From: Macrostomum lignano
Taxonomy: Eukaryota
DNA: 64,000 nt
Direction of reading: 5' to 3'
Assembly: GCA_002269645.1 (NCBI GenBank)
Contig: NIVC01001175.1
Location: forward strand, 141,709-205,708
Positions 43,013 through 64,000 of the stretch are shown here, in pieces (the stretch's first letter is position 1; each line of letters begins with the position of its first letter). A program made the position numbers and the translations under genes. The notes under the pieces are model-generated. The model was given only the letters and a program-made list of their open reading frames with translations. It had not been told where the DNA came from and searched no databases.

Positions 43013-46000
43013 TCAGTGCATCCACAGACCGGCCCAGAAGGCGGCGGCCAAGGCCAAGAACACGCAAGCGTAGGCCACCAGCCAGCCTTCGCTGACGTGC
43101 TCGAGCTGCTTGCCTTTGATCTTCGGCTCCGGCTCGCTGCTGGTGGCAGCCACGGATTCGGTGGACTTGTCAGTCAGCTCAAAGCGTCGGCTGATGGCGC
43201 CCTCCAGCTTCTTGTTGCGGACGGCGCCTTTTGGAAAGTGGAAATGGAAGGGCAGATTAAATTAACTATTTTCCATGCGGACAGCTCAGTCTATGAGAAT
43301 TACCCACAGGAATTTTTCCCGCGTGAGTTTTTCCCACAGCGAGATTTCCCCGCCGAGATTTCCCCGCCGAGATTTCCCCGCCGAGATTTCCCCGCCGAGA
43401 TTTCCCCGCCGAAGTTTTCCCACAGAGATTTCCCCCACCGAGATTTCCCCACCGAAATTTCTCCACCGAGATTTCCCCACCGAGATTTCCCCACCGAGAT
43501 TTCCCCACCGAGATTTCCCCACCGAAATTTCTCCACCGAGATTTCCCCACCGAGATTTCCCCACCGAGATTTTCCCACCGAGGTTTTCCCGCAGGGTTTT
43601 TACAGTCGGAATTTCAAGTCAAATCATATCGGATTGGAAGTCTAATTTAGTCTAGTTTTTTATCTAGTCTAGTTTATGTCATGTCTAGCCTAGCCTAGTC
43701 TAGGTTAGTTCTAATCTAGTCCAGCACTGTCGATAGACTGCATTTGACTTGAAATTCCGAGTGTAAAAACCCTGCGGGAAAACCTCCGGGAAATTCTCGT
43801 GCTCCCGTAAACTGGGTGTACAGTGATTGTCTACTGCAGCTGTCCATGACAGAAACCCTGTGGGCACTCAGAAGCATGCGGCACTCACGGATGCGCAGGC
43901 ACTCGAACAGAATCATGGCGATAATCTGCATTCCCGTGTAGATGGCCAGCACGATGACGGCCCAGAAACGGAACTCCGGCCTGAGACTTTCGAATGTGGC
44001 GCCCAGCCAAATGGCGACGGCTGAAATGTTTGAAATTTAAGTAAGCGTCGTTTACTGAAAAGCTACAGATAGAATTTTTTTTTAAATAGGGAGTAGTAGC
44101 TAAATAAGTACACCTTGATTATTTTATAAAATGGGACCGTAGCCCAGTGGTCTGGCGCAATGCTTACATGTATGTGCCAGCGGCCCAGGCTCGATTCCAA
44201 GTGCAGTCACATTAATTTGAGGCTAAGTTGGAATCTTGGCTTGGCTCTACTCGTGCAATTAACTCTCATGATGGCCAACCCCCAAGGCACAGTGAAGTGT
44301 ACATGTACATGCCTAACGATTAACAAAGGTAGGGCCGCTGTACACTCCTGTAAGTGTGTGCCTGTGCGAATGACTGCGTACGTATCCGCGCGCTTGTGTG
44401 CCTGCTAAGGGAAGTCGGCAAAATGTGCAATAATGCCTCTCGTCGGTTGTGTGACAATGTCGCTTAAAGTGCACTAGAATGAATCCAGCCCCTGCAGCTA
44501 AATAAAACTTAAACTAAGATTGAGGAACAATTAATAAAGTAAGTGCCCACATGAAGAGCCATGCTGCCCATTGGGGCCTAAATGATCACCGGAGCGTCAA
44601 ACAGAGCCCATCTTCAACAGCATGAACTCTTGCTGGATGCAGGGATCGCATCCCAATACCCAGTCAAGCCTGCGACTTACTGGCGAAAGCCATCGCCAAC
44701 AGGCCGTTCCAGCGATGCAGCCGGTTAAAGATCGACCTGTGCTTGGTGCCCGGGTGCGGCCGGAAAATGCCGGCAATGATGTTGATGAGGCCGAGCGACA
44801 TGCCGATGACGCCGAAAATTCCGTGCACCTGGGAGTCGGTCTCCCACTCGCCCTGCTTCACCAGGATGTAGATGAAGCCAGCCAGCGCGATAACGTAGCC
44901 AATGACCATTGCGCAGACGTGGATGAGGAACCAAAGTTGCTTCTTGACCAGCTTCTGCGTCAGGACCGGGCGAGAGTGCCGGGCAACGACGATAGACAGG
45001 CCGCATAGGAAGAGCCAGAAGGTGGTCATGAGGGTGCCTGAGGTGCGATGCACGGGCTTTTTGGATAATTTGATAAGGATAATGACAAAGATGATCGCAA
45101 TAACAACTCACCGTGAGTCTGCACTTTCGCCTCGATACCGCTAAAGTACACGGTGGCTTTGTTGCCCATCGGAGTGAGTCGCACCGGAGATCTCAATGGA
45201 AGATGCGTGTGCTTTCCGATATTTGGGGTGTCTGCAATGGCGAGTTTCAACCGCTTGAGATACGCTATTGATTTGAACAGCTTTCAACTACTTATCCGTT
45301 CCTCGTGTAAACGGATGGCTAACAAAAAACGTAAACATGATCAAAGTTGGGACACTAAACGTCACAGCGAATTTAGTTGAGAAGCACTTACTCGCCAAGT
45401 TCATTCCCTGACCCAGTATCACGAACTTGCCCTCGCCGGACATCTTTCTAGTGACAGAGATCAGCGAGCTCGACTTGCTGGACATGTTGTACTTGTAGTA
45501 GGAGAAGGTTGCGTCGACAGGTCGAACAAACTGGCAGCTGATTCTGTTCGGCTGAACAGGCAGGCTGGCTGCGTCTCCGGTGCCCAAATCAATTCGAGTC
45601 TTCATGTCGGTGATGTCCGACTGTAATGTAGTTGGCGCATTTTTGTATAAAGAGTGATACAAAAATTCCTATTCCTGTATCCATTGTGTATTTTTGCGTG
45701 TGACCTCGCCTCGATCAAGCATATCTTCCAACTGTTGCTATTTTTAGCCCCTGCTGTATGTGTTTAGTCATGAGTTTCGTCTTCGTTAGTAATTGCCATG
45801 CTAGCAATTAGACAATTATACCTTTAAGCTTTAAGCTTAGCCTAAGGCTTCTCCAGCACACCCAAGTTCTGTGTCTCAAGCTACTGAGTGAGCAGACTGA
45901 GTCACACAGCTACAGCTGAGGTTGCTGCAATAGAGAATTAAACTTTTGTTGCCAAAATATACTCGAATAGAGATTTCTTACCCTGTACAGCGGAAAGACG

Positions 46001-49000
46001 CACTTGTCAGCAACAATTCCGAAATCCAACCGAATTTTCGATCTCTTTGAATTGTAGCCGCAGCTGAAAACCTCGAGCTTGTCCTGTCGAATAAGAAGTT
46101 TGTCAAGTTTAATAGTTTTCTTTTCAATGGCTGTTTTGGAAAGTTGTGTGTGTTGGCACTGTAAACCAATCGGTTACAAACATTTTTGTGTGAAGCGGAG
46201 TAGCTTGGCGGTTAACGATTCTGACTCTGTAGTCATACATGCGCAAGGACCAACCCCAAAGCACAGAGCGTACATGCCTGATGATTAAAAAGTCCGGATC
46301 GCTGTACACCCTGTGTATTCAATACCTTTTAGGATCAATCTACACTTGGTCCCAAAAAACACTCCACAACAAAAAGGTAGGTTAAATTTAAGCATGGAGC
46401 ATACATGCGCGATGGTGGATGCGAGTGTGGATGGACTTCTTCGGAGACCAGACCTCACCCGACTGCCCATTGGCTGATTCTGATGCTCCTCAACTCCGCA
46501 ACAATCTTACCCTACCCCAACTCTATGACTCGATATTTGACATACCAGTATGACTGCGCATTGCTGTGGTGTTGTAAGCGATCCTAAGATTACTAAGCAA
46601 TGTAGCGATTCTTTCTGATTGTTTGGTGTGTGCTATATAGTCGAATTAGACCAGAATGTCTCAAGTTCGGGTACCTGTAATAAAAGTGTCTCAAGACCGT
46701 TCTCACCATCTCATCAGAGTCGCCCAGGCCCACAGCCAGCCAGTCGAATGTGTGGCCGAAAATCTCAAACAGCAGCTGGTTGGACGCTGGCATCGGGGTG
46801 ATCAACACGCCGTAGCGGCAGCCGCCGCGGGTGTCGCATGACGGCGGGTAGAGAGCGCAGGTCTTGGTGGAGCCGCAACCGAACATGGTCGGCATGGACT
46901 GCAGCGTGTCCTGTGGGAGGGACGCGTACCAAACTGAAGTTAGAAAATGTTTTAATATCATTTGGCTAGACCCACGGGCCACATGCGGCTAGCGAAGCCT
47001 CTCTATCCGGGTTTTTGGGTCCTTTGAAACTTCGCAATAGCAATCCGTCCGCTCAAGGTTGGTGTCTCTTTTCAGCTCTCTCTCTCCTCTCTTCTCTCCT
47101 CTCTTCCCTCCTCTCCCCTCTCCTCTCTCTCCCCTCTCATCTCTCTCCCCTCCCCTCTTCTCTCCCCTCTCCCCTCTCTCCTCTCGTCTCTCCTCTCTTC
47201 TCTCCCCTCTCCTCTCTCTCCTCTCTTCTCTCCCCTCTCCTCTTTTCCCTCTTCTTTCTCCTGTCTCTTCACTCCCTTCTTCTCTCCTCTTTTATTTTAT
47301 CTTTTCACTCATCCCAACTATGGCCTCTACTCTCATCTCTCATCTCTCATCTCTCATCTCTCATCTCTTATCTCTCATCTCTCATCTCTCAACTTCTATT
47401 TGCTCTCCATTCCACTCTCATCTAGCCCACAGCCAAGAGTTGGATTATTTATCTGACCTTTGAGGTAAAAAAACCTTGCCTACCCCTGATTTGAGTGCTT
47501 TGTTGTTGATCTCTACAGTATTCTAATCTTTACTTAAATGTATTTGCAGTGCTTTAACAAATTAATAAATTTAGCTAAGTTGACAAGGCCCAAACTGAAA
47601 TTTGATTGCTGATCATTTTAGACGTTAGTTCCAGAAAAATGTACATTTTGAGTTGGGTATCGAAATGAAATAAAATAACGCGTTTGTTACATTCTGATAC
47701 TCGTACAGCAGTGATTGACTTCTAGTGATCCTTGATCGAAACCTTGAACCAGCAGTCTCAGTGCAGTCGGCACTGTCGCGACTCTGATCATATTTCATGT
47801 CATATTTGTTCGGAAAAAATTCTATAATTGACTCACATTTCCCAAGGAGAAACTGGCGGGCCCAGCTGAGTTGGGAATGATGGCGCTCTGGATTTCTGTC
47901 TGGTACTTCTCAAATTCAATCACGACAGTGGCGCTGGAGCAAAAAATCAAGAAAGTTATTCGATATTATTTTATAGGAAAGTACAATATGCACTTTTGTT
48001 TATGCGAACTCACGAGAACATTATGGGGCCTTCGTTGGTGGCAGGCGCGGTCCAAGTGCACGTAACCGAGCTGTACATGTCTTTGCCTGCCGTCGAGTGC
48101 CCGACGCAGTTGTTTTCCTGAAAATTTGTCGAGGTAAAACGATGCTTCTAAGGATTTTCTTATCGATTTAAAATCGCGACTATTTGTCATCGAAAGCGAT
48201 GCAGTTCGCCTCACCCCGCCTGGCGCGTACACAGAGAAGTATCTTGGCGGGACAGTCATGCCGGCGGAGGTTGAACAGGCGAAGCTGCCCAGCAGGGGGC
48301 CGAGGTTGGTGTTAGTATAGCCGTTCGATGCTCGGACTGCTTTCATTACGAAGCCGGCGAATTTCGTTGAGCTCGAGACTCCGGCCAGGGTCACTGCGAA
48401 GACAGGTTTTGTGGGAAGCTCAGTTCATGTTAAACTGAGGCATTTACTTTTTGAAATAAATTTTGCGTAAGAATAGTTTTACCTGTCAGAGTGTCCCCTA
48501 CACTCCAGCTGGTCTTACTGACGGAGATGCTGAACTGCTCTTTGCCAGCGATGCCCGGATACATGTTCATCGCATCCACTGGCATCTTGCCCTTGCTGTG
48601 AAATGGCTGCTGGTTGAGGCACGCGAATGCCGGCGGTCCAGATGGGAATGCTGCAATAACAGGATCTCAGGTGTTAGAGACTCAATCTACACTTATCTTT
48701 ATTGAGTTCGTACCCCGTTTGTTTATTTTATTTTATTATCAAATAAAATAAGACTAAAATTCGACTAAAAGAAGGGGTTGTAGCCTAGTGGTTGGAGCGT
48801 CGGACTCATGACTGAATGGTCGGGGGTTCGATTCTCGACCCAATTTGAACAATTTGTGTCCTTGAGCAAGACGCTTAACTCTGCATTGCTTCAGTTCACC
48901 CAGCTGTAAAATGGGTGCCAGCATTAGCTGGGATAACTGAGGGTGTGTGTGGCGACCCCCCCCCCAGTCCTTACGCAGCAGCCGTACGCAGCCGATGCGC

Positions 49001-49196: not shown

Positions 49197-49708
49197 TGGA
49201 ACTAGCAGATAGTGGCAAAGTCTTGAAGCTTGAATGATAGCTGCAATTCCTTACTCTTACAAGGTTTGCAGGAGGAGCAGAAACTAGCTATTAATATGCT
49301 CTCGTAGAATCCGTCTCGTGAGAAGTGGAGGCTGGGCGGTGGACCACTTCTAACCCCAAAGCAACAATTGTAAACGCCTCTCGGCTTCTCGGTCTCTGAT
49401 CTATCTTTCTGTCTCTCACAAAGATTTGTAAGAATAGAAGCATTTGCAATCTTTCAACGCAGTGCTGGACAGAAGAAATGGGTGGGGTGAGAGGGGTTAT
49501 TACTGCATGGCATGCAGTTTTTTTTAACCCAAGCCCACCTTTCGGCAGCAAACTATCAACAAACCTAATTTTGCATTCCCGCTGTTTATCTCTGCTCTGT
49601 CTTTGCATTCTTTCTTTGTCTGACAAGAGTCTGTGAACTCGTAGGCTGTTAGCATGCTCTACAATTAAGGAGCTTCTTCATACAGTACAGACAGTAGTAG
49701 GGCGAATT

Positions 49709-50150
49709 ATGATACTGCCGCACTAGCACTGGCGAGATAGGCGGCAATGCAAATGTATAGGGAAAAATACACTGCGGAGATATGAGCCCTATCTCTGTGC
49801 ATTGGGGACGGCTAAGCACTGCAGAGATATGAGCTCTATCTCTGTGCATTGGGGACGGCTAAGCACTGCAGAGATATGAGCTCTATCTCTGTGCATTGGG
49901 GACGGCTAAGCACTGCAGAGATATGAGCTCTATCTCTGTGCATTGGGGACGGCTAAGCACTGCAGAGATATGAGCTCTATCTCTGTGCATTGGGGACGGC
50001 TAAGCACTGCGGAGATAGAGGCGATTCATGATACTGCCGCACTAGCGCTGGCGAGATAGGCGGCAAAAAGGATATAGGAAAAATACACTGCGGAGAGGAT
50101 CCTATCTCTGTGCATTGGGAACGGCTAAACATTGCAGAGATAAGAGGGGT
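49709..50150. repeat. Subterminal repeats of the Maverick: ~5 x 47-bp hairpin-forming units within a duplicated ~120-bp block
   Basis: The unit core atctctgtgcattggggacggctaagcactgc begins at 49791, 49838, 49885, 49932 and 49979. The block at 49709 recurs at 50028. Confidence 0.9.
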
Positions 50151-50467: not shown

Positions 50468-51841
50468 ATGAAAACTTTTAAAAGTTGTCATAGAGACCTC
50501 TATGAGGTCTGTATAAGCTGCGAAGTGTGCCTGCTTGGAGGCGTGTCCCCAAGACACCACGAGAATGAGAACTGTCTGGTCTCATGCTGGTTGGCATGCG
50601 ACCAGTGCGGCACCGTCGAAGCTCTGCAGGAGGGAAAAATTCCAGCATATCATCGAGGACACAAGATCGTCAGCGATGACAAGAAAAAGCAAGAAAGTAA
50701 CCGCTGGAAAGTAATCCGCGCCATCAAAAAGAGCAACGAGAGAGAAAAGAAGAGCCAGCAGAAAAAGGGAGCCAACAGGAGTCTGCTATCAGCTCACTTG
50801 AGTCAAGTAATTGACTCTACATTGAAGAGGATGAGGCCAAGCGGGTCTTCAGCAGCTGCAGAATTTGAAGTTGAGCTGTCTGCTGGAGTCGAGGCTGCTG
50901 GAGTCGAGGCTGCTGGAGTCGAGGCTGCTGGAGTCGAGGCCGCTGGAGTCGAGGCTGCTGGAGTCGAGGCTGCTGGAGTCGAGGCTGCTGCTGTCATAAA
51001 CTTCATAGAGGAAGATGTCCTGGATCAGTTCCTCAGGGAATTCAACGCTGGTCAGCAGCAGCAGCAGCAGCAACCTGTCTCTTCGGTTCCGGTGATTGCT
51101 GGAAAACAACTTCATCTAATTGAAGACGACCACGAAATGGAAATCCTAGAAGAGGAGGGCAGCGACAATGAGTCGCATAATGCAATTGTGCCACCTGCAG
51201 CTCCAGCCGCCCCAGCTGCTCTGGCCGCCCCAGCTGCTCTGGCCGCCCCAGCTGCTCTGGCCGCCCCAGCTGCTCTGGCCGCCCCAGCTGCTCTGGCCGC
51301 CCCAGCTGCTCCAGCCGCCCCAGCTGCTCTGGCCGCCCCAGCTGCTCCAGCCGCCCCAGCTGCTCTGGCCGCCCCAGCTGCTCTGGCCGCCCCAGCTGCT
51401 CTGTCCGCCCCAGCTGCTCTGTCCGCCCCAGCTGCTCTGGCCGCCCCAGCTGCTCTGGCCGCCCCAGCTGCTCTGGCCGCCCCAGCTGCTCCAGCCGCCC
51501 CAGCTGCTCTGGCCGCCCCAGCTGCTCTGGCCGCCCCAGCTGCTCTGGCCGCCCCAGCTGCTCTGGCCGCCCCAGCTGCTCTGGCTGCCCCAGCTGCTCC
51601 AGCCGCCCCAGCTGCTCTGGCCGCCCCAGCTGCTCCAGCCGCCCCAGCTGCTCTGGCCGCCCCAGCTGCTCTGGCTGCCCCAGCTGCTCCAGCCGCCCCA
51701 GCTGCAGCCTCTACAATTCCAGCTTCTCAATCCGAAACTCCACCCGTGCCAGCTGGAGTTGCCTTCTTTCTGCCTCCTGTCGGCGGGGCTGGGTACGAGG
51801 TAACGATTTTCGAAAATCGTATTAGAATTGTGCCGCTGTGA
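50468..51841 (+). CDS. Maverick accessory protein: Cys/His-rich putative zinc-binding N-terminus, basic region, AGVEA and APAALA repeats (457 aa)
   Basis: Open ATG-initiated ORF with non-repetitive N- and C-termini and in-frame 15-bp and 18-bp repeats. No family recognised. Confidence 0.6.
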   Translation: MKTFKSCHRDLYEVCISCEVCLLGGVSPRHHENENCLVSCWLACDQCGTVEALQEGKIPAYHRGHKIVSDDKKKQESNRWKVIRAIKKSNEREKKSQQKKGANRSLLSAHLSQVIDSTLKRMRPSGSSAAAEFEVELSAGVEAAGVEAAGVEAAGVEAAGVEAAGVEAAGVEAAAVINFIEEDVLDQFLREFNAGQQQQQQQPVSSVPVIAGKQLHLIEDDHEMEILEEEGSDNESHNAIVPPAAPAAPAALAAPAALAAPAALAAPAALAAPAALAAPAAPAAPAALAAPAAPAAPAALAAPAALAAPAALSAPAALSAPAALAAPAALAAPAALAAPAAPAAPAALAAPAALAAPAALAAPAALAAPAALAAPAAPAAPAALAAPAAPAAPAALAAPAALAAPAAPAAPAAASTIPASQSETPPVPAGVAFFLPPVGGAGYEVTIFENRIRIVPL

Positions 51842-52734
51842 CTAAGCAATTTTTGTACTTTTTTGCTTTCTGTGTGGAGTGAGAAATCTACCCATTTATT
51901 GCAATTATTGCTAAAACTTTATTTCAACTAGCTTTTTAAAGTTGAAAGTAGGTACATTAATTAATGATTTGATCATCTCATAACTCTGTATTCGCTTCTA
52001 GGAATCTTGCTTATAAGTTTTCAGTTTTCATTTCCAAATTAGTTTTAAAAAAAGCTCGTAGCTCGTAGTGGCAACCAATATTTTTTTGGTATCCGAGGTA
52101 AAAAAAAATTATTTGAAAAGTAGGTGAAACATTATACAGTTGAATTTAACAAATTAAAATCAACATAACATACTTTCAATAAATTGGTGATGGTTTCGTA
52201 TGCTTGGTGCGATTGATTAGGTATAATTTTCTTTCTACTGCTTTGACGCGGTGTTTCCTCATTCTTTAATTATTGAACTTTTCAGCTATATTTCTGCTTC
52301 TAAACTCTCGTCTGTATTTGTAATTCATTGTTCCATGCATTGTTTATTGACTATGATTGCACCATGTGAATTCGATATTTTTTTAAAAAATATATATATA
52401 ATGTCAGCATTTTTCCACTCGGTGATTGGTTTGTTAATTAACTATTGGCTTCATTTTGCATTTTTTACCGATTGAGTCTGCGTAGGAGGCAAATAGAAAC
52501 GAACTTTTACGAATAGGGATCAATAGAATATGCATGCAGAGAGCTAGCTTAAGGGAGAACCAAAAAAATATAACCAGCATCTACTAGCTTGTAAGTGTGG
52601 ATATTGTACCAGTATTGCAGCAATAAAGACTTACGAAAAAAGATTTCAAATATTCACTCCCAGTTGCTTATGACACTCAGTTGCAGCCAGTAAACACTGT
52701 CAGCTTTTAACTGCTTGCCTTTTCTATGGTTGAG

Positions 52735-53100
52735 CACTCCTGGATGGAGCAGGAGAATGACCACTCATGGATGGAGAATGACCACTCATGGATGGAGAAT
52801 GACCACTCATGGATGGAGAATGACCACTCATGGATGGAGAATGGCCACTCGTGGATGGAGGATGACCACTCGTGGATCGAGTATGACCACCCTTGGGTGG
52901 CCATGACGTCAGCAGCGAGTCAGCAGCCAGCAGCGAGTCGGCAGCCAGCAGCGAGTCGGCAGCCAGCAGCGAGTCGGCAGCCAGCAGCGAGTCAGCAGCC
53001 AGCAGCGAGTCAGCAGCCAGCAGCGAGTCAGCAGCCAGCAGCGAGTCAGCAGCCAGCAGCGAGTCAGCAGCCAGCAGCGAGTCAGCAGCCAACAGCGAGT
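52735..53100. repeat. 21-bp (gatggagaatgaccactcatg) and 18-bp (gccagcagcgagtcagca) tandem repeats, possibly coding (ORF 52726-53106)
   Basis: Direct periodicity; both unit lengths are multiples of 3. Confidence 0.85.
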
Positions 53101-53544
53101 CGGTGACTGATGCACACCAAGGTAAGTGCCTTTATTTATCCTTTTCAACTTACTTAAAAATTTTCTTATCAATGCGATGTATATTATGCAGTCTAAAATT
53201 TTAGTCCAAAGAATGGGAGAAGGGGAGATAAAAGACTTTATACCGGTAGGGTTGTACATGTATGCTTGGGTACAGACGTTTAGTTTAGTATCTTTGATAT
53301 TTGAAACTATAGGCAGCAAAAAACAAAAATATTATCCTAAAACCACAAACCAGGTTCAACAGTCAGCTTCAGCAGAGTTGCCCAAGCCTATGATCAATCA
53401 CTGGAAATACTGAGGCTCAGATCGAGTCACCCAGACACGCTTCCGTCAGAATTTTTTGTCCAAGCTGGAGACAAAATTATTGAGGCAGTTCAGCAAAGAA
53501 TTTCAAGACATCATTACAAAGTTCAGCTAAAGGCGAATATTCGA

Positions 53545-56500
53545 ATGGTCCGAATAAGAGATGGGGAGATGCTTGCCGAAGAGGACAGATGGATAAGCTG
53601 TAAAATGCAGGCCCTAGACCTAGGTGGTGAAGCAGGCCGTTTAAACAACTGGTTGATTGAGCAGGAGCAGGAGTTGGAGAGGATCTGTAGTATGATTAAT
53701 ACGAACGGCAGTGGCTGGACAATTAAACAAATTAATTTTCTAGACATCAACCTTGCCAGGTACAATCCAATTCGATTTCGCCAGGGCAGAGCCGTTAGAT
53801 TCAATCTTCCTGCCAGTTTGAAGAACAAAAAGGCTGTTATCAATCCACCGAGCACAGGCAAAGACTGTTTCCTGTACGCCTGTCTCGCTGCACTGCACAG
53901 CGCCGATCCGAAAGTTCAGAAATCGCCCAACAGAATATCCTCTTACGATGAATGGTTGCGTGAGCTGGACTTTGCAGAAATCTCCATGCCAGTGAGTGTC
54001 GCTGATATCGATCGCGTCGAGTCTAACAATCCAGGAATTTGCATTTCTGCGTTCTCTTGGCAGCAGGGCAGTGTGACTCTTCTCCGTCGCCGCAAGCATG
54101 AGTCAGATGACCGAAGACACCTCATGCTTTTGCTAGTTAAAGACAGCTACGGATCGGAGCACTGGTGTGCAATTACTAATTTTGACAGGTTAATGAACAG
54201 TCGTAATGGTCCCGCCATGAGGAAGTGGTGCACGAAATGTTTAACATCATTTTATAGCAACGAGAGGCTTCAAGAGCACAGGAACGAATGCAGCATTACT
54301 GCAGAAAATCCTGTCAAAGAAACGCTTCCAGTTCCAGGACAGAATGAAATAAAGTTCCGAAACTGTCAAAACACTGTCAGTCCACCATTCGTTGCCTATG
54401 CCGACCTGGAAGCCATTTTGCGAGCGAACACAGACCCTGCTAACCTGATCTCAAAGCATGAACCATGTGCAGCAGCTTTTCTTGCAGTGCCTCGTGAAGG
54501 CATGACAGGACCTCCGCTTAGGCCAGAAGGAGACATGTACAAGGTCTTTTGCAATGCGGACCCTGATGAGTGTATCCTTGGTTTTCTCAAATCTCTTGAA
54601 AGCCTGGCTCAGGATATATTTCACTGGAACCAGAAGCATAGCCACCAGCCGGCTGACCGATCATCCGCGACCGTCATGGATGATTTCAATTCTGCTGAGG
54701 TATGTCACTACTGCAAGAAGAACTTTAAAAGTTCTACAGATAAACATTTTGACCACGATCATTTAAATGGACAGTACAAAGGTGCAGCATGTCAAGAATG
54801 CAACCTGCGAGCACAGCTCCGACGCCGGTTTCTGCCCCTGGTTTTTCACAACTTAGGCGGCTACGACCTTCATCTTCTACTTTCCACTGCGCTTGGGAGC
54901 ATGAAAAATTGGAAACTTAGTGTTGTTCCGCAATCATCCGAGCGATACTTGTCACTAAGGGCGGAATTCCCTGTTGCAAGTTACGTAAAGAACGGAAAAG
55001 TTGTGCCAATCATGTTTACAATTCAGTTCATCGACTCGCTCTGCTTTTTGAAGGGAAGTTTGTCCAATTTGTTTGCTAATCTTCCCGAAGCTGAATGCAA
55101 GCTGACAATGCAAATGCTTGAGTCAAGACCACATCTTTCAAGAGAGCTACTTCGAAAAAAAGGGATTTTCCCATATGATTACCTCACAGGATTTGAGATT
55201 CTCGAGCAGTCGGTTTTGCCGCCTAAAGATGCTTTTTTTAATCGACTTTCCGATCGGGGAATTTCCGACGACGACTACAATAGAGCAAGAGCGGCATGGG
55301 CGGCATTTCAATGCAAAAGTTTGAAGGATTATATGCTCGCCTATCTTGAAATGGATGTAAGGCAGCTGGCTGACATTTTCGAGACATTCCGACAGGCCAG
55401 TCTGAAAGAGGACGGATTGGATCCGGTACACTACTTTACTACTCCTGGTTTGTCTTACGACTCAGCTCTAAAGTCGACTGGAGTGGTTCTAGAGCAGCTG
55501 ACTGATGCTGACATGTATCATCTGTTTGAGAAGGGAATACGAGGAGGCATGTCCTTCATTAATGTGCATTGCGTCAAAGGTAATAATCCTAGCTTGCCAG
55601 GTTATGATGATCAGCAAGAGAGTGTAAGCCTCATGCCGATCGATATGAACAACTTGTATGGCTTTGCCCTGTCGCTTCCGCTTCCATGCAGGGAATTCAG
55701 GTGGGTACCGGAACAGGAAATCCAGTTCTGGGACTCCAATCGGTTTCTGTCACTCAATCCAGAAGCCGAGATCGCCTACCTTGTTCAACTCGATCTAGAA
55801 TACCCAGCTGAGATTCACGATTCGACTCAGGAGTTACCGTTTGCACCTGAAAAATCAAAACCACAGCCAGATCAATTCTCGCCGTACATGGCCGAACTAT
55901 GGAAAGAGATTGCTGAACAGCGAACTGGCAATGCTGAAGCTAAGTTTCAAGCAACGGAGAAGCTTCTACTCACCTGTACCGACAAGGATTCTTACGTAGT
56001 TCACAGCACCGTTTTAAGATTTTACCTGCAACACGGAATGCGGATCAAGTGCGTCAAAAAAATGATTTCGTTCAAGCAGGAAAATATTTTCGCGCCGTAC
56101 ATTGCCAGCAACAATGAAAAAAGAGCTTTGGCAACTTCCGAGTTTGCTAAGGATTTTTACAAATTGAAAAACAATTCTCTCTTTGGAAAAACTATGGAGA
56201 ACGTTCGAAAAAGATGCGATGTTCGAATTTGCACTAACCAGACTCAAGCAGAAACTTGCGCCTCTCGACCAAACTGTGCCGCATTCTCGATTATCAATGA
56301 GTCGTTGAGCATTTTTCAGCTCAAAAAAGATAAAGTCACGCTTGACAAGGCCATTTTCGTTGGCCAGGCAGTTCTCGATCTCTCTAAGATGGCCATGTAC
56401 AGCCTACTATATGACAGGCTCCGACCGCTGTTCTGTCATTCAGACGGTTCCAGAGACATGATGCTTTGCGGAGGTGATACTGACTCATTTTTTCTAGCTT

Positions 56501-57003
56501 TCAAGAATCATGATTTAACATCGGAGGTAATCCCGAAGCTTAGAGAGGAAAAAATACTTGACACATCCAACTATTCTCGAGACCATCCGCATTTCTCTGA
56601 AGAGTTAAAAGGAAAGCTGGGCTGCGTTAAAGATGAATCTGCTGGTGGAATTTACCAGGAGTGGATTCTTTTGCGTCCAAAACTTTATTCGTTTCTCCCT
56701 GCCGAGAATTCGAGTGCAAAGATCAAGAAAACTGCCAAAGGCGTGAAGCAGTCAGTAGTAAGACAGCAAATTTCGCATGCGAACTATGTCGACGCGTTCG
56801 AGTCCAAGCAAGAGCAGATGGTTGCCATGACAGCGATTGTTTCCAAGAAACACGAAATCTTCACGTCGGTCATGGAGAAAAGAAGCCTATCGGTGTGGGA
56901 GGATAAGCGAGTGTGGCTTAGCAGTAATCGAAGCCTGCCCTACGGACACTATGCGCTGACGCCCGCATCCCACGATCAGCTGAAGCGCATCCGACTGGTC
57001 TAG
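53545..57003 (+). CDS. polB: Protein-primed family B DNA polymerase (Maverick/Polinton type), 1152 aa from the first ATG
   Basis: Exo I YADLEA, Exo II FHNLGGYD, FIDS, Exo III YLEMDV, Pol A IDMNNLYG, Pol B KLKNNSLFGK, Pol C GGDTDS, KDE, KTAKGV. The frame is open from 53341. Confidence 0.96.
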   Translation: MVRIRDGEMLAEEDRWISCKMQALDLGGEAGRLNNWLIEQEQELERICSMINTNGSGWTIKQINFLDINLARYNPIRFRQGRAVRFNLPASLKNKKAVINPPSTGKDCFLYACLAALHSADPKVQKSPNRISSYDEWLRELDFAEISMPVSVADIDRVESNNPGICISAFSWQQGSVTLLRRRKHESDDRRHLMLLLVKDSYGSEHWCAITNFDRLMNSRNGPAMRKWCTKCLTSFYSNERLQEHRNECSITAENPVKETLPVPGQNEIKFRNCQNTVSPPFVAYADLEAILRANTDPANLISKHEPCAAAFLAVPREGMTGPPLRPEGDMYKVFCNADPDECILGFLKSLESLAQDIFHWNQKHSHQPADRSSATVMDDFNSAEVCHYCKKNFKSSTDKHFDHDHLNGQYKGAACQECNLRAQLRRRFLPLVFHNLGGYDLHLLLSTALGSMKNWKLSVVPQSSERYLSLRAEFPVASYVKNGKVVPIMFTIQFIDSLCFLKGSLSNLFANLPEAECKLTMQMLESRPHLSRELLRKKGIFPYDYLTGFEILEQSVLPPKDAFFNRLSDRGISDDDYNRARAAWAAFQCKSLKDYMLAYLEMDVRQLADIFETFRQASLKEDGLDPVHYFTTPGLSYDSALKSTGVVLEQLTDADMYHLFEKGIRGGMSFINVHCVKGNNPSLPGYDDQQESVSLMPIDMNNLYGFALSLPLPCREFRWVPEQEIQFWDSNRFLSLNPEAEIAYLVQLDLEYPAEIHDSTQELPFAPEKSKPQPDQFSPYMAELWKEIAEQRTGNAEAKFQATEKLLLTCTDKDSYVVHSTVLRFYLQHGMRIKCVKKMISFKQENIFAPYIASNNEKRALATSEFAKDFYKLKNNSLFGKTMENVRKRCDVRICTNQTQAETCASRPNCAAFSIINESLSIFQLKKDKVTLDKAIFVGQAVLDLSKMAMYSLLYDRLRPLFCHSDGSRDMMLCGGDTDSFFLAFKNHDLTSEVIPKLREEKILDTSNYSRDHPHFSEELKGKLGCVKDESAGGIYQEWILLRPKLYSFLPAENSSAKIKKTAKGVKQSVVRQQISHANYVDAFESKQEQMVAMTAIVSKKHEIFTSVMEKRSLSVWEDKRVWLSSNRSLPYGHYALTPASHDQLKRIRLV

Positions 57004-57585
57004 TGCGGGTGTTTAACAGACTGTTTAGTACTTTTTCTTGCTTTTAGAGTTGTTTAAATTGCCAAATTCTGTTTTAAATGTAGTGACTTGCATGTAGTAA
57101 CTTTTACAAATTTGTATGCTTGGCTAATTGCGCTAGATTTAGCTGTCAATTTGTTTTTGCGGCGTGAAATATTGATATCAATTTAAGTTTTACTTTTTAT
57201 AAAGCTGTGTGGCAAGTGCGCTCATACAATATTAATTCATTTTTGTTTGCTTTGTGTACTACTTGTTTAAAATGTGTTTTTGGTTTTTATCTGACACAAA
57301 TTGTTCCTGTAAATTCAATCAGCGTTTTAATCATATTTTCTCTATCACTTTTCTATTTCTCTTCTCTCGGTGCACATCGTTTGTTATAACGATGGTAGTA
57401 TTGTTTACTTTCGGATTTGATATGCGTTTTGCGATACTTTTGGTGATGGGCTAAATACGTTTTTGAAGTGTTCCATAGCTGTCTGCCTGGGAAAATGAAT
57501 GTAAAGAATACCAAGTTTATCCTTTTATTCACTTTTCACTAATCATTGAAATATTTGCGGCAAATTGCTTGACTTGACTTTATTT

Positions 57586-58158
57586 TTATTCAATGGAAAG
57601 AACTACATTGAGTAGACGCATGCTATCGGTATGCAACTGATTCAAGGACCGAGCTCCACTGAGAACAAAAGAGCCGCTGTGAAAAAGCAGACATTTACAA
57701 AAGTTTAAATTGAAAATTAAAGCAGAAAAGGATTCTGGTTCATATTCGGCGTTTGGGATAATTGATTTTAACATTAATAAGGAAAGTGCGGAATGAACTG
57801 GGAGCTGTCCATGAGCAGTAATAGTTTTAATTCGAACACAAATTGTTTGATGAGGCAGCAGTTGAGCCGGCACTCTCCGATGCAGCATAGCCACGAAGCG
57901 ACGGGCAGCCCTTTTGGCGTCTGCGTGGGTCTTGGCACCGCAGATGCTCAGTTGCCCAGTAGGGTAGAGTAGGAGAGTCACTCTGGGAATCCGCATCCGC
58001 TTGATGAGCACCCGGGGCCAGACGGGCCGGTAGATCACATGAGCCATGCTGAGAGCCAGTTCCCGTAGAGGCAGCTGAGCGCCCCTGCCACCATCCAGTC
58101 TCAGATCTACTCCGCCAACCAGATTGGTCACTCTTAGGGCTGTAGCTGGTGGGCTCAT
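57586..58158 (-). CDS. Divergent TATA-binding protein (TBP)-like protein, core only, ~190 aa, intronless
   Basis: Two TBP repeats: TNLVGGVDL..YRPVWPRVLIKRMRIPRVTLLLYPTGQLSICGAKT..AARRF and EYEPESFSALIF..LLFHSGSFVLSGARS. First ATG is at 58158 (the track start at 58197 is TTG). AATAAA overlaps the stop. Confidence 0.82.
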   Translation of the reverse strand: MSPPATALRVTNLVGGVDLRLDGGRGAQLPLRELALSMAHVIYRPVWPRVLIKRMRIPRVTLLLYPTGQLSICGAKTHADAKRAARRFVAMLHRRVPAQLLPHQTICVRIKTITAHGQLPVHSALSLLMLKSIIPNAEYEPESFSALIFNLNFCKCLLFHSGSFVLSGARSLNQLHTDSMRLLNVVLSIE

Positions 58159-58678
58159 TTCGATCGTCAACTTCTTCACCAAATCTGCTTCTGCCAACTT
58201 TACTGCTCGTGTGCCACGGACACTGCTCGCTTCTTAAGTTGATGCAGAACTTTGGCTTAAGCCAACTGTAGTGCAGCAACGAATTTCTCACTGCACAGCC
58301 AGTATCTGAATCTTCAGTCGAGGGTGCTCCCAAATCTTCTAGGTTATAAACCTGTCTTCCAAGCAGCTCAGTCAGAAAAATCGACTTCCTTTCCCCATTT
58401 GACCAGATCGGACCACTGGCAATGCTCAGAATGTCTTCCGCCAGTTCCATGTACGGACGGGTTCCATCATTCCACTTAAACTGGTGCAGACTCTTAGATA
58501 GCTGTCTGTAGTAAACTCGCATGTCAGGTGAGACTCTCTCCCATGGATACGGAGGTGCGTACACATGGTGAGCAATGTGGTAGCTCCCCGCTCTGATTTG
58601 AACAACTGCCAACTCCTTCACAACAAATTTTTTGCTTGTGCTGTTGCACGGGAATCCTTGGAAGTCAATGTAGTTCAT
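57827..58678 (-). CDS. Maverick-associated RNase H/DEDD-like fold protein
   Basis: N-terminal YIDFQGF..FVVKELA..HHVYAPPYPW..HQFKWNDG..NLEDLG resembles, from recall, an ORF common in animal Mavericks. The C-terminal ~110 aa overlap the TBP-like gene and may be read-through. Confidence 0.55.
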   Translation of the reverse strand: MNYIDFQGFPCNSTSKKFVVKELAVVQIRAGSYHIAHHVYAPPYPWERVSPDMRVYYRQLSKSLHQFKWNDGTRPYMELAEDILSIASGPIWSNGERKSIFLTELLGRQVYNLEDLGAPSTEDSDTGCAVRNSLLHYSWLKPKFCINLRSEQCPWHTSSKVGRSRFGEEVDDRNEPTSYSPKSDQSGWRSRSETGWWQGRSAASTGTGSQHGSCDLPARLAPGAHQADADSQSDSPTLPYWATEHLRCQDPRRRQKGCPSLRGYAASESAGSTAASSNNLCSN

Positions 58679-58707: not shown

Positions 58708-59400
58708 TCAGTCCACCTTCTTATATACTTTTCTGGCAGGCAATTTCAGCCAGGCTGTGTTGCTCCCGTACCCCTTGACTAGACTCTCCTGTTCTTTCTC
58801 CAGTTCACCCCCTCTGCTGGTTGCCATTTTCTTCTTAACTGATTTACCAACAGCGGAAAGCGGAACATTAAGCTTTTTCTGCTGCAGAAAATCGATGAAC
58901 TCGTTCCACCCAACTGGTTCACGCTCACATGGCGAATCCCTCACTGTGTGCTGAATCAAGTCCAGTATGTTTGAGGAAGGGATTGACGTGCCTGCGATTT
59001 CCACCTCCCCGTTTTCACAAACTCGAATCAGCTCTGGATTGGTGGACAGGATCGTCCACAGACTGCGAGCCCTGGTTTTGAATTTCTGTGGCACCGACTT
59101 GCTGATCTTCTCTTCCCAGGTGCTTATCTGGGGTGTCTCTGTTTTCATCAACTTGGCTTCAGTATTGCGTGCTCCTTCTTTTCCAGCGTGCTTGCGCTTG
59201 GCCAGCAAACTTTGCATTGCACTTTGGTACATGGCGGTTTTCACATCTTCTGGACAATCCTCGGCATACAAGATGTCATCGCATTTCTTCTGAGCCTGCT
59301 TCAAGTCAGCTTCAGTGGTAGTCTCATTTGGCTTCAAATTCTGCATCAACATCTCATACTCTGCTTTAGGAATCAGAACCATTTCTGAAAATTTGTTCAT
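58708..59400 (-). CDS. Conserved Maverick protein of unknown function (230 aa)
   Basis: GEVEIAGTSIPSSNILDLI..PVGWNEF..NVP resembles, from recall, a recurrent Maverick ORF; located in the packed viral gene block. Confidence 0.65.
   Translation of the reverse strand: MNKFSEMVLIPKAEYEMLMQNLKPNETTTEADLKQAQKKCDDILYAEDCPEDVKTAMYQSAMQSLLAKRKHAGKEGARNTEAKLMKTETPQISTWEEKISKSVPQKFKTRARSLWTILSTNPELIRVCENGEVEIAGTSIPSSNILDLIQHTVRDSPCEREPVGWNEFIDFLQQKKLNVPLSAVGKSVKKKMATSRGGELEKEQESLVKGYGSNTAWLKLPARKVYKKVD
58720..58727 (-). promoter_or_regulatory. Candidate TATA box (TATATAAG) 42 nt upstream of ATG 58678
   Basis: Same octamer as at 50359; position-based inference. Confidence 0.45.
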
Positions 59401-59704
59401 TTTGCTTCTTCTTCTTTACCAGCTTAAGCAGAATCGGGAGTATTTTGATGAAGCCAGCCTTCAACAAGTCTGTCTTTCTTCTTTTGTGAGTAATTTTTCG
59501 AATTATCTCTTTTGACTTTGCAAGAACAGCTTTTTCATCGAGCGAAAACGATAGATTGTTTTGTAAGAGATTATGGCAGGCCTCGACAAGAAAATAACGC
59601 ACTTCTTTTGGACAATTTTTTATCAACAGCCGCTTGAAGCGCACGGTATATTTAGGTGACGCAAGAACCGCAAAAAGACTTGCATATGAATCAAGCACTT
59701 CCAT
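59366..59704 (-). CDS. Small basic Maverick protein, putative virion core (pVII-like), 112 aa
   Basis: EACHNLLQNNLSFS..K..LAKSKEIIRKI..KAGFIKILPILL pattern; ATG at 59704. Confidence 0.6.
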   Translation of the reverse strand: MEVLDSYASLFAVLASPKYTVRFKRLLIKNCPKEVRYFLVEACHNLLQNNLSFSLDEKAVLAKSKEIIRKITHKRRKTDLLKAGFIKILPILLKLVKKKKQNEQIFRNGSDS

Positions 59705-59745
59705 TGCGATGAAAACAATAGCTGATAAAAACAAGCTTCACTTTC

Positions 59746-60425
59746 TTAAGCAAATACAAGATGGGGTCGCTGGTTGGGCAGAATTCTGGCCCGCACTCGC
59801 AGCTCATCGGGAGTTGATGGGTGAAAGTCTAGGAACAGGTAGGCTCCCCTGCCCTGCGCGGTCACGTGCTTGAACACTGACAGCAGAAAGCCGGGCTTCT
59901 CTGTAAAGCACTGCCTGCCCAGTGCTGCAATCTGCAGCTGGTCTCGGGGTTTTTCAAGATAGCTAAGTACATTACATTCAAGCTCATTGTTCGCGACTCT
60001 TTTCCCTTGAAAAATATATTCTGAGTCAGCATCACCAAAAAGCACGGCAAGTGATGTGCGATTCCTGTGAAAAAATTTCGCATTGAAGCAGAGTTTGAAG
60101 TTTCCTCTATTAAGTCATCGAAAACAACCAGGTCATTGGGCCTAAGTGCTGCCTCGATGTTGGTGGGAAATCCCTGGCGCAGCTGCACACCTAGGCTGTT
60201 CAGTTCTGCATGGCCTGCCTGTGAGATCCCATAGTACCACAGAACTCTGCCAGGCTTCACATCAAACATGACGTCTCTGTACTGGATCAGGTGTTCGACA
60301 AAGGTTGTTTTTCCTGCATTGGTGGGCCCGCAGACAATCATGCAGCTTCCCTGCCTGAGGCGGATATCGTAGCAAACTTGCTTTTCTCCCATGTTTAATG
60401 CATAAATATTAGAAATCACGGACAT
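59746..60425 (-). CDS. FtsK/HerA-family (A32-like) genome packaging ATPase with one frameshift
   Basis: Walker A GPTNAGKT, Walker B VVFDD, LTQN. The KNP-RDQLQI motif is split by a missing base in the G4 run at 59946-59949. Confidence 0.9.
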
Positions 60426-60928
60426 CTTTTTCTTAAGTTGGCTTCAAACCTCTGTAAGATTCTATCATTCAAATGATTTTTCTCATTAGCATGCAAATGC
60501 TTCAAAATCCCCTCAAATGACCGATTGAACAGAAACTTTTGATAAGCAAAATAGATGCAAAACATTCCGCATTTATTAGAGTTAGCACATTGAACTCTGT
60601 TTATATTGCTTCGGAGCCAAAAGCCAGTTGTTTTAATCTCTCGAAACAAATTATAAACCAAAGATAAAATTTCAGGTTCCCAGCCGAGGGAGTTGAACAA
60701 CTCAATGCGATTTCCTTGCCCAACATAGCACACCACCCAGTGACCAAATGAGCCATTGTGCTGAAGTAGGACAAAAACAAACTTGTTTTCAAAGGAAATT
60801 GATGATCTAAATTTTCTTTTTACATTCAAGGGCAGAGAATTTTTATAGCGCAAATGTAAAGTAACTATGAGAAATTTTTGGTAAGGCAAAAATTTTCTGG
60901 CGAGATTAAGTAGTTGAATTGCATCCAT
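60416..60928 (-). CDS. Adenain-like capsid maturation cysteine protease (170 aa)
   Basis: GHWV (His), FNSLG (Asp position reads Asn), RVQ (oxyanion Gln), CGMFC (Cys). Confidence 0.88.
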   Translation of the reverse strand: MDAIQLLNLARKFLPYQKFLIVTLHLRYKNSLPLNVKRKFRSSISFENKFVFVLLQHNGSFGHWVVCYVGQGNRIELFNSLGWEPEILSLVYNLFREIKTTGFWLRSNINRVQCANSNKCGMFCIYFAYQKFLFNRSFEGILKHLHANEKNHLNDRILQRFEANLRKRCP

Positions 60929-60933
60929 GTCAA

Positions 60934-62214
60934 TTAAGAGGAATAGTCCAGCAAAAGCTCTCGGTGCTTGGTGACCTCAATCAGCGAGTCATACAGGCAC
61001 ATAGCAATCAGGGACACCGCTTCATTCAGAGCCTGTTGGAAGCGAATCTCCAGCCGCAGGTTGCCCTCCTTCTGTCCGTACCACAGAGCCGCTCCCTCGG
61101 GTGTGAGATCGAATGCAAACACCGTGGTGTTGTTGGAGAAGAGCTGGTAGGGGATCCACGGGACCGAGTTTGTGTGGCTTGCAGATTGACAGCTTTTCAG
61201 GTAGTGCAAGTATTCTCTTACGAAGGAATTGTTTTCAGGTGTGAAGGCGCCGTGGCACACGGTTTCCCCACCTTTCTTTAGAGCCAATCGGCTAAGGTTG
61301 AAGCTCTGGAACTGTAACGGGCTCGCGTGATGATGACCGTTGAATGCTCGGTGGCTCACGAAGGCCAGCATGATGAACTTCGGCAATTTTCCATGAGTGA
61401 ATCCTTCAATGTTTTTTGACTGAATACCCTGGGGTAGGATGAAGTTCTGCATTTCAGTTCGCTCGATGGGATACAGTGCATTTTGGTTTGTCAGCCCCTG
61501 CTCATGGCCAGGCTGATGTGGGGCATCACTTTGACTCGGCGAAGATGCAGAATGCTGTGAGAGATTTCCATTCGGTATGCCGCGTTGTTTGCATTCGGGG
61601 TTCTGATGGCAAAGGCCCATCGCTGGGGACCAGTTTGATGTGCAGGTGCAGATTGCTTAGCAGAAACACTGGGCACTGGAAAACATCGCTGAAGAGCGGC
61701 CCCGCATACTCCATCCATTGGGATTCCCTGTGGCTCTCCGTGTGCTCTTCAGCTGCCGAGTTCGGCTCCAGGAAGCCAGCAGGGTAAAGTTTTAGTTGCT
61801 GGGCATCGGATGAGCTCATTAGTGCTTTGAAGTACGCATGGTAGGGATAGAGCTGGTCTCCACCAGACACCACTCGCTGGTTAATGCTCACAATTACATC
61901 TGAGAAGGCTGTAGACAGAACAAAATTTTCTGGGTGCACGTCACTGTCTCTGCGCTCGGTGATGATGCCATCTCCATCTCGAACATCCTCCCTCAGCAAA
62001 CCCCCATCCAGTCTCACAAGGCGGCAGCGAATATAAAGAAAAGAATTCAAGCAGATCTGTATTCATCGGCAGATTGGTGGCAGTCAAATTCAATGGGAGA
62101 GTTTGCAACAATGGAATTAACTGGGTGAATATCAACATAAGTAGCTTTTTCAATGCAGGTTTGTAGAACGGGCGTCTTAAATAAATCAAGTCTGGGATTG
62201 AATCCGTAAGCCAT
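60934..62214 (-). pseudogene. Double jelly-roll major capsid protein, three apparent frameshifts
   Basis: LDLFKTP..PIEF, YPYHAYFKALM, LHIKL, RRVKVMP, YPIERTE, GKLPKFIMLAFV, VFAFDLTP, GNLRLEIRF. Frame changes near 62055, 61627 and 61507. Confidence 0.88.
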
Positions 62215-62216
62215 GT

Positions 62217-62591
62217 CTATGACAGAGAGTCGAGCACGCGTTTCACAGTTTTCTTGCTGACTTTTTGCTTTCGCTTTCCTCCGCCTGCTCTATTCTTCTT
62301 TGCTTTCGTCTTCCTATTCTTAAGCTTTTTCCACTAGCCTTGCTCGACCTCTTACTGCGATTTCCACCAGTTGCCTTCGGTGCCCTTCTTTTTCTTCAAT
62401 CGTTTCGGACTTGCTTCAGTATTTCTTTTGCGCCTGACGTTGCTAAGCGTCGAGGCTGATGATGATGATATAGCCGCTGGCGGAGGCTGGTATGTCATGA
62501 TCCCTGGGAAGCTCCCACAGCCATAGAGTGCAGGCTTTTCGTGTCCTGTCCTCACCCCCGAATATTGCTGGATTAGCTGCTGGTAGTTCAT
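62217..62591 (-). pseudogene. Lys/Arg-rich Maverick ORF (putative core protein), frameshifted
   Basis: MNYQQLIQQYSG..LYGCG start and a highly basic C-terminal segment (KNRKTKAKKNRAGGGKRKQK) in another frame; stop lies 2 nt before the MCP ATG. Confidence 0.5.
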
Positions 62592-63401
62592 TGAATGCGT
62601 TTCTCCTGAATTGAACTGTAAGCAGAACAGGGCTGTGAGTCTGTGCAATCAGTGGGCAACCATAGATGTCCCGCAGCTGAACTCGAATGCTGTGAAGAAG
62701 ACTGATTCGTTGAATCGGGAAGAATATTGTTTTCTTAAATATTTTTGTTTGATAGTTGCCCCATTCAATGCCGGCTTTCATTCCAACTGTTCTCACAAGG
62801 AGCTCCAGTTGCAATTAGTTGACTCAACGATACTGCAGTGCACATTGATTAAGCTGGTGCGCGGCAGCCAATGCAATGCTCGGATACGCGGCTCCCTGGC
62901 TGGATTTTCACAGCCTGGTTTCCAAATCCCAGCCAATGCAGAATTTTACTAGATGGAAGAAACAGCTCTGCTCTCGCAGTGTTGTTGTGCACCACAGTTC
63001 GTGAGTTGCGGATTTCGAACTTCATACCAAATTCCCTGTTGCCACTACGCCCCATCAGGCCGACTCATCAGCCTCCATCTCAGACTCCCTGTCACTCATT
63101 GCATCAAAGAACAGCGAATCAGAGTTGGCCAGCAGCTCATTCAGCGCTCCACCAGCTCCTCCACTCTAGCAAAGCGTCCGGGTTGAAGAACCAGGGCCTC
63201 ATGCTCTCTTCCATCTGAGACAGTGAAGCAGTAAGGCTCGTCAACATTGAACCATGCAGCAGGCAGATGGATTTCAGCCAGACCTGCCTCATAGTCCACA
63301 TTTCGATCCAAGTAAATAGGTGAAGGCAGGTAAAAATTAAAGTCACTAGGAGTACCTTCAGCATGCTCACTGTTAATCAAAATAGTTCGCATTATAATCA
63401 T
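62588..63401 (-). pseudogene. Minor capsid (penton-like) protein, several frameshifts
   Basis: N-terminal FNFYLPSPIYLD..YEAGLAEIHLP..WFNV; C-terminal SIRVQLRDIYG..VLLTVQFRR. Confidence 0.75.
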
Positions 63402-63428
63402 AAACTACATGATGAGGGCTGTGCAAAG

Positions 63429-64000
63429 CTAAACCTTTCTTAAGTCTTTTCATCCACCCAGCCAGTCGAGTCGTAGCCCGCCCATTTCACCAGATAGCGA
63501 ATTTTCCCTTCCGCTTCTCCGTTTTCAGGATCTTCTCAATCACATACAGCCGCTGTGAGTCCGGGACAGCCTGCAGCTCGTGCTCATGGAAGAGTCCTCG
63601 AATCTCTTGCCCCCGCATGTCTTTAATCTTGTACATGTAGGGATAATGTTTTGGGCTCTGCTCACCACGGTGTACACTTCCTCACTCCAGCTCGCTTTGT
63701 ATCCCTTTTTGAATATCCGTGGAGCATTGAAATTCTCACTGACTGGTTTTCAGCGAACTTAGGCTTCTTTAATTTTTCTAGAGTCTCGACTGCTTTTCCA
63801 TCGTACAGGTTCATCCACACTTCAGATTCATTCTCTTGCAGACACTAGTGGGTGCCATTTTGATGCTTCTGTGGTAGGTATTGTTGTAGGATTTTACCAA
63901 GCTTAGGCAGCACATCAAAGCCAGGCAGTGTGCTCTTGTAGGTGAAGTAGCGCCACATTCTACTTTTCAGAGTTCGATTCCATCGCTCAATGACAGCTGC
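63429..64000 (-). pseudogene. Retroviral-type (c-)integrase C-terminal half with chromodomain, frameshifted, continues beyond the window
   Basis: Manual translation: VIERWNRTLKSRMWRYF, SYNNTYHRSIKMAP, FKKGYKASWSEEVY, YVIEKIL..YLVKWAGY. Confidence 0.85.

Follow-up and report, generated by a model that had tools for sequence, protein, structure and literature searches.

Mavericks (Polintons) carry pPolB, integrase, ATPase, protease and capsid genes in two convergent modules, with AGT-repeat termini and a length of about 16.7 kb, and the element described here from the flatworm Macrostomum lignano resembles them in these respects, its capsid genes being putative. Within the parts of that description available to us, vertebrate Mavericks have no TATA-binding protein (TBP) among their core genes and no intron in PolB, unlike the flatworm element (PMC8097293). 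The herpesvirus vTBP of beta- and gammaherpesviruses (ORF24 in KSHV) offers a likeness in its virally encoded TBP fold, its use of host Pol II and a proposed non-canonical TATA box before virion genes, as far as the sections of PMC12529657 available here describe it. According to the same sections its box is TATTWAA, and ORF24 has polar residues at V122 and V161 (Table 1), as do the element TBPs. ORF24 is otherwise a large multidomain protein of a six-member complex that binds Pol II directly, and it keeps the four phenylalanines of the DNA face without the TFIIB-contacting acids, whereas the element TBP keeps the acids and has an altered N-lobe Phe pair. A vTBP has a Pol II-binding domain at its N terminus and a DNA-binding domain at its C terminus; the element encodes a bare 190-aa core instead, and a Pfam scan of the neighbouring ORFs found no family matching the vTBP activator complex. 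A non-canonical TATA box in front of late genes does appear to be a shared trait, with a different motif.

The TBPs of NCLDVs and other large viruses are likewise two-lobed, and the eukaryotic N-lobe basic patch is not family-wide among them; in the portions of PMC7221094 at hand they mostly have Phe at L5.1 (90%), a stirrup that is about 40% conserved and a viral TFIIB alongside. The element TBPs differ in having an L5.1-type Tyr in 16 of 16 proteins, a conserved stirrup and no accompanying TFIIB that we could find: a PF00382 search for the virus-encoded TFIIB of an NCLDV-type orthogonal pair gave 0 of 15 matches at element positions, although a very divergent TFIIB could escape a profile search.

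A TBP label has been placed on another element before. The MELD-virus map of Starrett et al. (2021; PMC8502044, Fig. 5 legend) gives a TBP label to an adintovirus-like PolB element, so that the earlier note's suggestion of an undescribed module is not supported in the strict sense. In the accessible text of that paper TBP is a label only, with no residues, promoter or mechanism, and the labelled gene may be a homologue of the present family. In the literature searched, Maverick, Polinton and TBP occurred together only in two versions of Starrett et al.; the terms TBP and TATA are absent from PMC10748475, 10.64898/2026.06.19.733378 and PMC8097293, and TBP, TATA and Macrostomum gave no match in the available part of the Starrett supplement. 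A TBP in such an element is not wholly undescribed, and the literature searched yielded no description of the family, a box or a mechanism in Mavericks.

The TBP-like gene and its element

The window, that is, the whole 64,000-nt stretch that was analysed, holds the following features (evidence in brackets).

49693–50146, plus strand: left terminal inverted repeat, beginning AGTAGT (sequence, sister copy)
50468–51841, plus strand: repeat-rich ORF of 457 aa, behind canonical TATATAAG (50359) and TATAAAAG (50410) (ORF list, sequence)
52726–57003, plus strand: protein-primed PolB (PF03175, E = 2e-12) with an upstream exon (Pfam, spliced contigs)
53122–53353, plus strand: GT-AG intron of PolB (removed by splicing in run contigs, X1 and X2)
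57579–57590, minus strand: two AATAAA poly(A) signals, one over the TBP stop (57585–57590) and one just past it (57579–57584) (sequence)
57586–58158, minus strand: TBP-like gene, two lobes, 190 aa (ORF list, Pfam, AlphaFold model, alignments)
57827–58678, minus strand: ORF of 283 aa, with a core of about 155 aa resembling unnamed arthropod clusters and a low-complexity tail in the +1 frame over TBP lobe 1
58708–59704, minus strand: two conserved ORFs of 230 and 112 aa without assigned function (ORF list, Pfam)
59862–64000, minus strand: virion block with packaging ATPase, adenovirus-type protease, putative major and minor capsid genes and integrase

The element has the hallmarks of a Maverick: a pPolB (PF03175) together with a retroviral-type integrase recognised by similarity, and AGT-ended terminal repeats, of which the left lies in the window. 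The window's contig ends at 64000; on contig C530 there is a sister copy with both terminal repeats, their AGT ends and a 6-bp target duplication. The protease matches PF00770 (E = 7e-5) and a P-loop ATPase is also seen. The integrase resembles an ORF of the sister copy and carries motifs that we take to be diagnostic; the capsid genes, which had no family match, are named on position and on motifs that we likewise assume to be characteristic. The ATPase, both capsid genes and the integrase are fragmented in the assembled copy, and some of these breaks may be assembly errors since contigs from sequencing runs differ from it by single-base indels within the virion block. The core of the 283-aa ORF may be Maelstrom/DEDD-like, which we mention only as a lead. 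The upstream exon of PolB is repeat-rich and its spliced intron measures 232 nt (window 52726–53353), an arrangement unusual compared with vertebrate Mavericks as described. Left of the element lie exon-like pieces of a host membrane protein (44664–46961), which by eye we take to be cytochrome b561/DOMON-like.

The TBP-like ORF has the extent first reported and runs from ATG to TAA on the minus strand. The same report set it between pPolB and the virion genes; it does stand tail-to-tail with pPolB, but belongs to the virion block as its final gene, on the same strand. Both proposed TBP repeats were recovered as two PF00352 stretches (E = 7.9e-25), and 35 of the 36 PDB sequence matches to the protein are TBPs. 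An AlphaFold model (pLDDT 86, from an alignment of 12 sequences) predicts two repeats forming the saddle fold, and the top Foldseek matches to it are all TBPs, archaeal and eukaryotic (TM 0.78); viral TBPs are a poorer structural match, the best BFVD matches being at most 20% identical. The match of this ORF to TBP is far beyond chance. With about eight residues ahead of the first strand, and an in-frame stop immediately 5' of the ATG in 6 of 14 lineage-A1 copies examined, the protein lacks an N-terminal extension, as had been proposed; the reported AATAAA at the stop is present, with a second behind it. A near-identical protein (99%) is on file for Macrostomum lignano under the name hypothetical protein, and 'TATA-box-binding protein' is the automatic name of a truncated form.

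The PolB intron is spliced in contigs of X1 and X2, which come from different studies, and not in a comparison run, which indicates that the element is transcribed; that X1 and X2 are RNA is itself deduced from the spliced junction, none of the runs being recorded as RNA. Contigs from four runs cover the TBP gene without a joint, in agreement with the claim of an intronless, uninterrupted gene, and this coverage could include read-through because the contigs carry no strand, start or level.

Copies, clades and the DNA-binding face

The genome holds 152 matches to the TBP gene, with identities from 100% down to 74% in lineage A1 and 38% in lineage A2. Among the 150 matches listed at least 99 are near full length without a stop, a count that haplotype duplicates may inflate. 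Among ten A1 copies, dN/dS is below 1 for lobe 1 in 45 of 45 pairs (0.05–0.56) and for lobe 2 in all 30 estimable pairs (0.01–0.32; 15 pairs saturated), the pairs not being independent. The check on selection suggested in the earlier note thus revealed purifying selection in a many-copied gene.

Searching the genome with capsid and ATPase queries uncovered a second, distant set of Mavericks, clade B. All five clade-B families whose left part was examined contain a TBP-like frame (hmmsearch E from 9e-12 to 7.5e-3); the sixth locus lacks the left part in the sequence examined. Profile-profile comparison of the clade-B frame to TBP gave a probability of 98.9%, and of four frames tested in Pfam two scored above the cut-off, one below it and one, the weakest case, had no match. 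The frame sits upstream of PolB, in an early block without boxes. These genes probably have an upstream exon, since their frames start at apparent splice acceptors (L106:1600–1630, L110:530–550). Element TBPs are retained in lineages 16–40% identical, and metagenome and run assemblies unrelated to one another also contain relatives of A1 and A2. Purifying selection together with conservation in two distant Maverick clades supports a functional TBP homologue.

In a tree that took in 43 of the 85 full-length outside matches, clade A (A1 and A2) forms one group (100/96) and clade B another (100/100). Neither is sister to the host TBP or to the host TRF2-like gene, which gives no support to a recent capture from the host. 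The joint branch of A, B and P0058 reached only 92/56, with long branches, and the union of both clades is weak. The host TBP (L050, contig C70) and TRF2-like gene (L051, contig C350) have a core in one open, intronless frame, with three matches each. These cellular proteins resemble the element TBP in fold, stirrup and C-lobe Phe pair, while the element protein is only about 29% identical to host TBP, branches separately, and has an altered DNA face and no N-terminal extension.

For some relatives (P0002-4, P0009, P0010, P0172-4 and the P0058 family) a place in a Maverick is only a possibility. A tblastn search found no Maverick genes near 32 metagenome loci whose TBPs are 23–33% identical, and scanning viral contigs for the context of outside TBP relatives found nothing. 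P0058 and P0188–P0212, a family of short, divergent TBPs found in metagenomes and in two Mytilus records, have Thr in place of the C-lobe Asn, as the window protein does, and may represent another mobile-element TBP family. In clade-B Mavericks a deoxynucleoside kinase gene (PF01712) adjoins TBP, and at least one family has a dUTPase (PF00692); the loci for these genes are L102:1837–2457 and 6809–7387 and L100:1213–1650. At one clade-B locus (L105:8869–10000, contig C362) TBP lobe 2 shares a single frame with a deoxynucleoside kinase-like domain, either a fusion or an assembly error.

The 190-aa protein keeps N12, V14, L63, E140, E142, F144, L157, F159 and V165 and is altered at P48, Y65, S71, T112, T114 and S145. 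Of the canonical four intercalating phenylalanines, lobe 2 retains F144 and F159 and lobe 1 has P48 and Y65; of the dyad Asn pair, N12 is kept and the second is T112. The initial reading of the acidic YEPE stirrup, of both second-repeat Phe and of the Asn-to-Thr change was borne out, as was Tyr in the first repeat. The Trp reported there was not: sequence and profile-profile alignments to host TBP and to a profile of 71 cellular-type TBPs, all 71 with Phe at the first N-lobe position, put Pro48 at this site and Trp47 one residue earlier, at the Arg position just ahead of it.

Yeast numbers are used for comparison across proteins, and some of them are our own extension, presumed correct, beyond a published table. 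The remainder follow Table 1 of PMC12529657, the part of that source used here, placed by motif on the host TBP. All 16 element TBPs aligned (12 from clade A, 4 from clade B) keep F190, F207 and an E/D-x-E motif that would form the acidic C-lobe TFIIB stirrup, and all 16 share four changes on the DNA face, F116 to Tyr, V122 to Ser/Thr, N159 to Thr/Ser and V161 to Thr/Ser, at positions near-constant among the 71 cellular-type sequences. Pro replaces the first N-lobe Phe throughout clade A (12 of 12 proteins), a loss that could weaken DNA bending, and the DNA-facing positions are invariant inside clade A. A Pro common to both clades was rejected, clade B aligning Phe or Tyr there in an uncertain alignment. 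N69 is missing from the clade-B stretches. A basic N-lobe helix (K82, R86, R87, R94), which in canonical TBPs serves regulators, is present in the window copy and is not kept in A2 or B.

The tail of the 283-aa ORF overlaps TBP lobe 1 in the +1 frame for 332 nt in the window, and this frame is open in 12 of 12 copies tested (332–335 nt in A1, 389 nt in A2). The chance of such an open overlap was 0.003–0.008 and <0.001 by recoding and 0.004–0.008 by codon shuffling. The amino acids of the tail drift nonetheless (57827–58158) and are not conserved across the two lineages, which are 37% identical. No slippery site or splice linking the overlapping ORF to TBP was found by eye or in run contigs, and open frames fusing the two occur in single copies only. 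Between subfamilies, identity falls from about 95% to 50–80% at the TBP lobe junction, with PolB at just 40–55%, which suggests that lobe 1 moves with the virion module and that the replication side carries lobe 2 along. A recurrent recombination breakpoint lies about window 57820 and in L032–L041, with chimeric TBPs joining virion and PolB modules of unlike ancestry. In one A2 copy (L052:2200–3900) the ORF upstream of TBP is broken by a retroelement-like insertion.

A candidate late-promoter box

The virion block of the window contains eight (T/A)TAAGAA sites on the gene strand and none on the opposite strand. Five lie 10–78 nt before a mapped ORF start, two before inferred starts and one is stray. 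All are on the minus strand.

58231–58238, minus strand: candidate box CTTAAGAA, 78 nt 5' of the TBP ATG, within the upstream ORF
58718–58727, minus strand: box TATATAAGAA, a canonical TATA overlapping a late-type box, 45 nt 5' of the 283-aa ORF
58832–58838, minus strand: stray TTAAGAA inside the 230-aa ORF, with no gene start behind it and absent from some subfamilies
59743–59750, minus strand: candidate box CTTAAGAA, 44 nt 5' of the 112-aa ORF
60430–60437, minus strand: candidate box CTTAAGAA before the packaging ATPase, with in-frame ATGs 10 and 43 nt downstream
62317–62324, minus strand: candidate box CTTAAGAA, next ATG 108 nt downstream, the inferred major capsid start
62732–62738, minus strand: box TTAAGAA, next ATG 74 nt downstream, for a small gene inferred between the minor and major capsid genes
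63437–63444, minus strand: candidate box CTTAAGAA, 41 nt 5' of the putative minor capsid ATG

The late blocks carry a TATA variant that changes with clade, TTAAGAA in A1, TATAAGAA in A2 and TATAAGC in clade B, with box forms CTTAAGAA, TATAAGAA and TATAAGCA, respectively, against the canonical TATAAAAG. Common to all is a TAAG core with G at TATA position 6, a position that we take from general geometry to lie under the altered N-lobe. Boxes stand mostly 35–110 nt ahead of start codons. In A2, TATAAGAA or TATAAAAG occurs at the corresponding places. In clade B, TATAAGC emerged de novo as the top strand-biased 7-mer (30 versus 0, in 6 of 6 loci), typically 43–60 nt before small genes and 124–166 nt before the capsid gene. 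All 4 clade-B proteins retain P191, and their box begins with T; in A1 P191 is lost, and C comes first in 8 of 13 boxes. According to the relevant part of PMC12529657, a Pro here favours T as the first box letter.

Box counts exceeded those of synonymous-codon shuffles in six of eight late blocks (0 of 300 shuffles), with 0–1 on the opposite strand; the other two blocks showed no clear enrichment (21 and 27 of 300 shuffles). The A1 motif was picked after the window had been inspected, and CTTAAGAA shows no enrichment when the window is taken as a whole (5 seen, 3.15 expected), its signal lying in clustering and strand. No late-type box occurs in five of five early blocks, which is weak evidence because only 0.6–1.6 sites are expected. 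An exact box is lacking before the protease and 230-aa genes, and none was seen in the terminal repeat. Two box sites lie only 8–14 nt before the first ATG, and TAAG could be a start-site motif instead of a TATA box.

Possible roles of the element TBP

We posit that the TBP gene encodes a late-gene specificity factor of Mavericks that uses host TFIIB and Pol II, like the herpesvirus vTBP without being one, and place the probability of this reading at roughly 0.6. The element TBP would bind its box through its DNA face, which is remodelled and more polar (Tyr, Ser/Thr, Thr/Ser and Thr/Ser at F116, V122, N159 and V161), the kept acidic stirrup would recruit host TFIIB, and host Pol II would thereby be brought to the genes for capsid, ATPase and integrase. 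Towards the termini, genes would depend on host TBP and ordinary TATA boxes. In clade B, a TBP made from the box-free early block beside PolB would provide an early-to-late switch; in A1, a TBP gene itself behind a box would give positive feedback. Redirection of Pol II to viral promoters, one of the two roles first proposed, is favoured over a decoy since a candidate target box precedes the virion genes; the TAF side of the decoy idea, extended to Mot1, finds no clear support, the basic N-lobe helix not being kept across clades.

The box may also be read by host TBP, because a search of viral contigs for a TBP-less Maverick as a control found none. The element protein could then be a general supplement, adding TAF-free activity in cells, those of the germline for instance, that are short of host TBP or have it tied up, which we consider unlikely. 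Presumably the positions named G(-26) and T(-30) in TBP structures fall on positions of the box. According to the titles of 1qn5 and 1qna wild-type TBP bound such variants, the A2 TBP gene itself stands behind canonical TATAAAAG, and the TFIIB stirrup is kept, all of which a supplement would accommodate. It would have no need, however, for the same four DNA-face changes in 16 of 16 proteins at near-constant positions, and the box sequence changes with clade.

A decoy that shuts off the host by sequestering TFIIB (or Brf1/Brf2) without productive DNA binding, some other factor reading the box, is in our judgement rather improbable. The stirrup is the most conserved partner surface, and the Pro of clade A and the missing N69 of clade B would fit a protein that no longer binds DNA productively. 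The DNA-facing positions are, however, not free to vary within clade A, an integrated, transcribed element would pay for poisoning Pol II, and TFIIB contacts TBP mainly when TBP is bound to DNA.

Service to another polymerase or process, either Pol III recruitment via Brf1/Brf2 or terminal-repeat binding in replication or packaging, seems more doubtful again. The stirrup is also used by Brf1 and Brf2 (as stated in the available part of PMC7221094) and lobe 2 moves with the PolB module in recombinants, but the boxes precede protein genes, the element has a spliced PolB mRNA as well as poly(A) signals, both typical of Pol II, and the terminal repeat has no visible box. A functionless passenger pseudogene of host origin, for which nothing speaks except some broken copies, is refuted by purifying selection and by retention across divergent lineages and unrelated assemblies, and we give it almost no credence.

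Returning to the late-gene specificity factor, a self-encoded, altered TBP with a matching box suggests from sequence that these Mavericks switch on their own late genes rather than relying on host machinery alone. A wider proposal, which we advance tentatively and think somewhat likelier to be wrong than right, is that animal Mavericks run their own early-to-late cascade through a one-protein orthogonal promoter system, in which a minimal TBP would plug into host TFIIB and Pol II at a clade-specific box, TBP residues and box letters would co-evolve, and the lobes would be reshuffled between replication and virion modules. A new finding is that a second Maverick clade of this genome, distant from the first, also has a predicted TBP, in five of five families checked. 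Unlike the giant-virus and herpesvirus versions, element TBPs appear to keep the contact with host TFIIB, and the three boxes and three protein lineages form a natural series of altered-specificity TBPs. The box also offers a motif for finding Maverick late genes. Maverick virions are unobserved in animals, and an element with its own TBP and a cognate box brings the timing of Maverick capsid genes within reach of experiment, in a tractable host that expresses copies. If true, a promoter cascade of their own would amount to direct evidence, from sequence, that elements never seen as particles have a viral life cycle.
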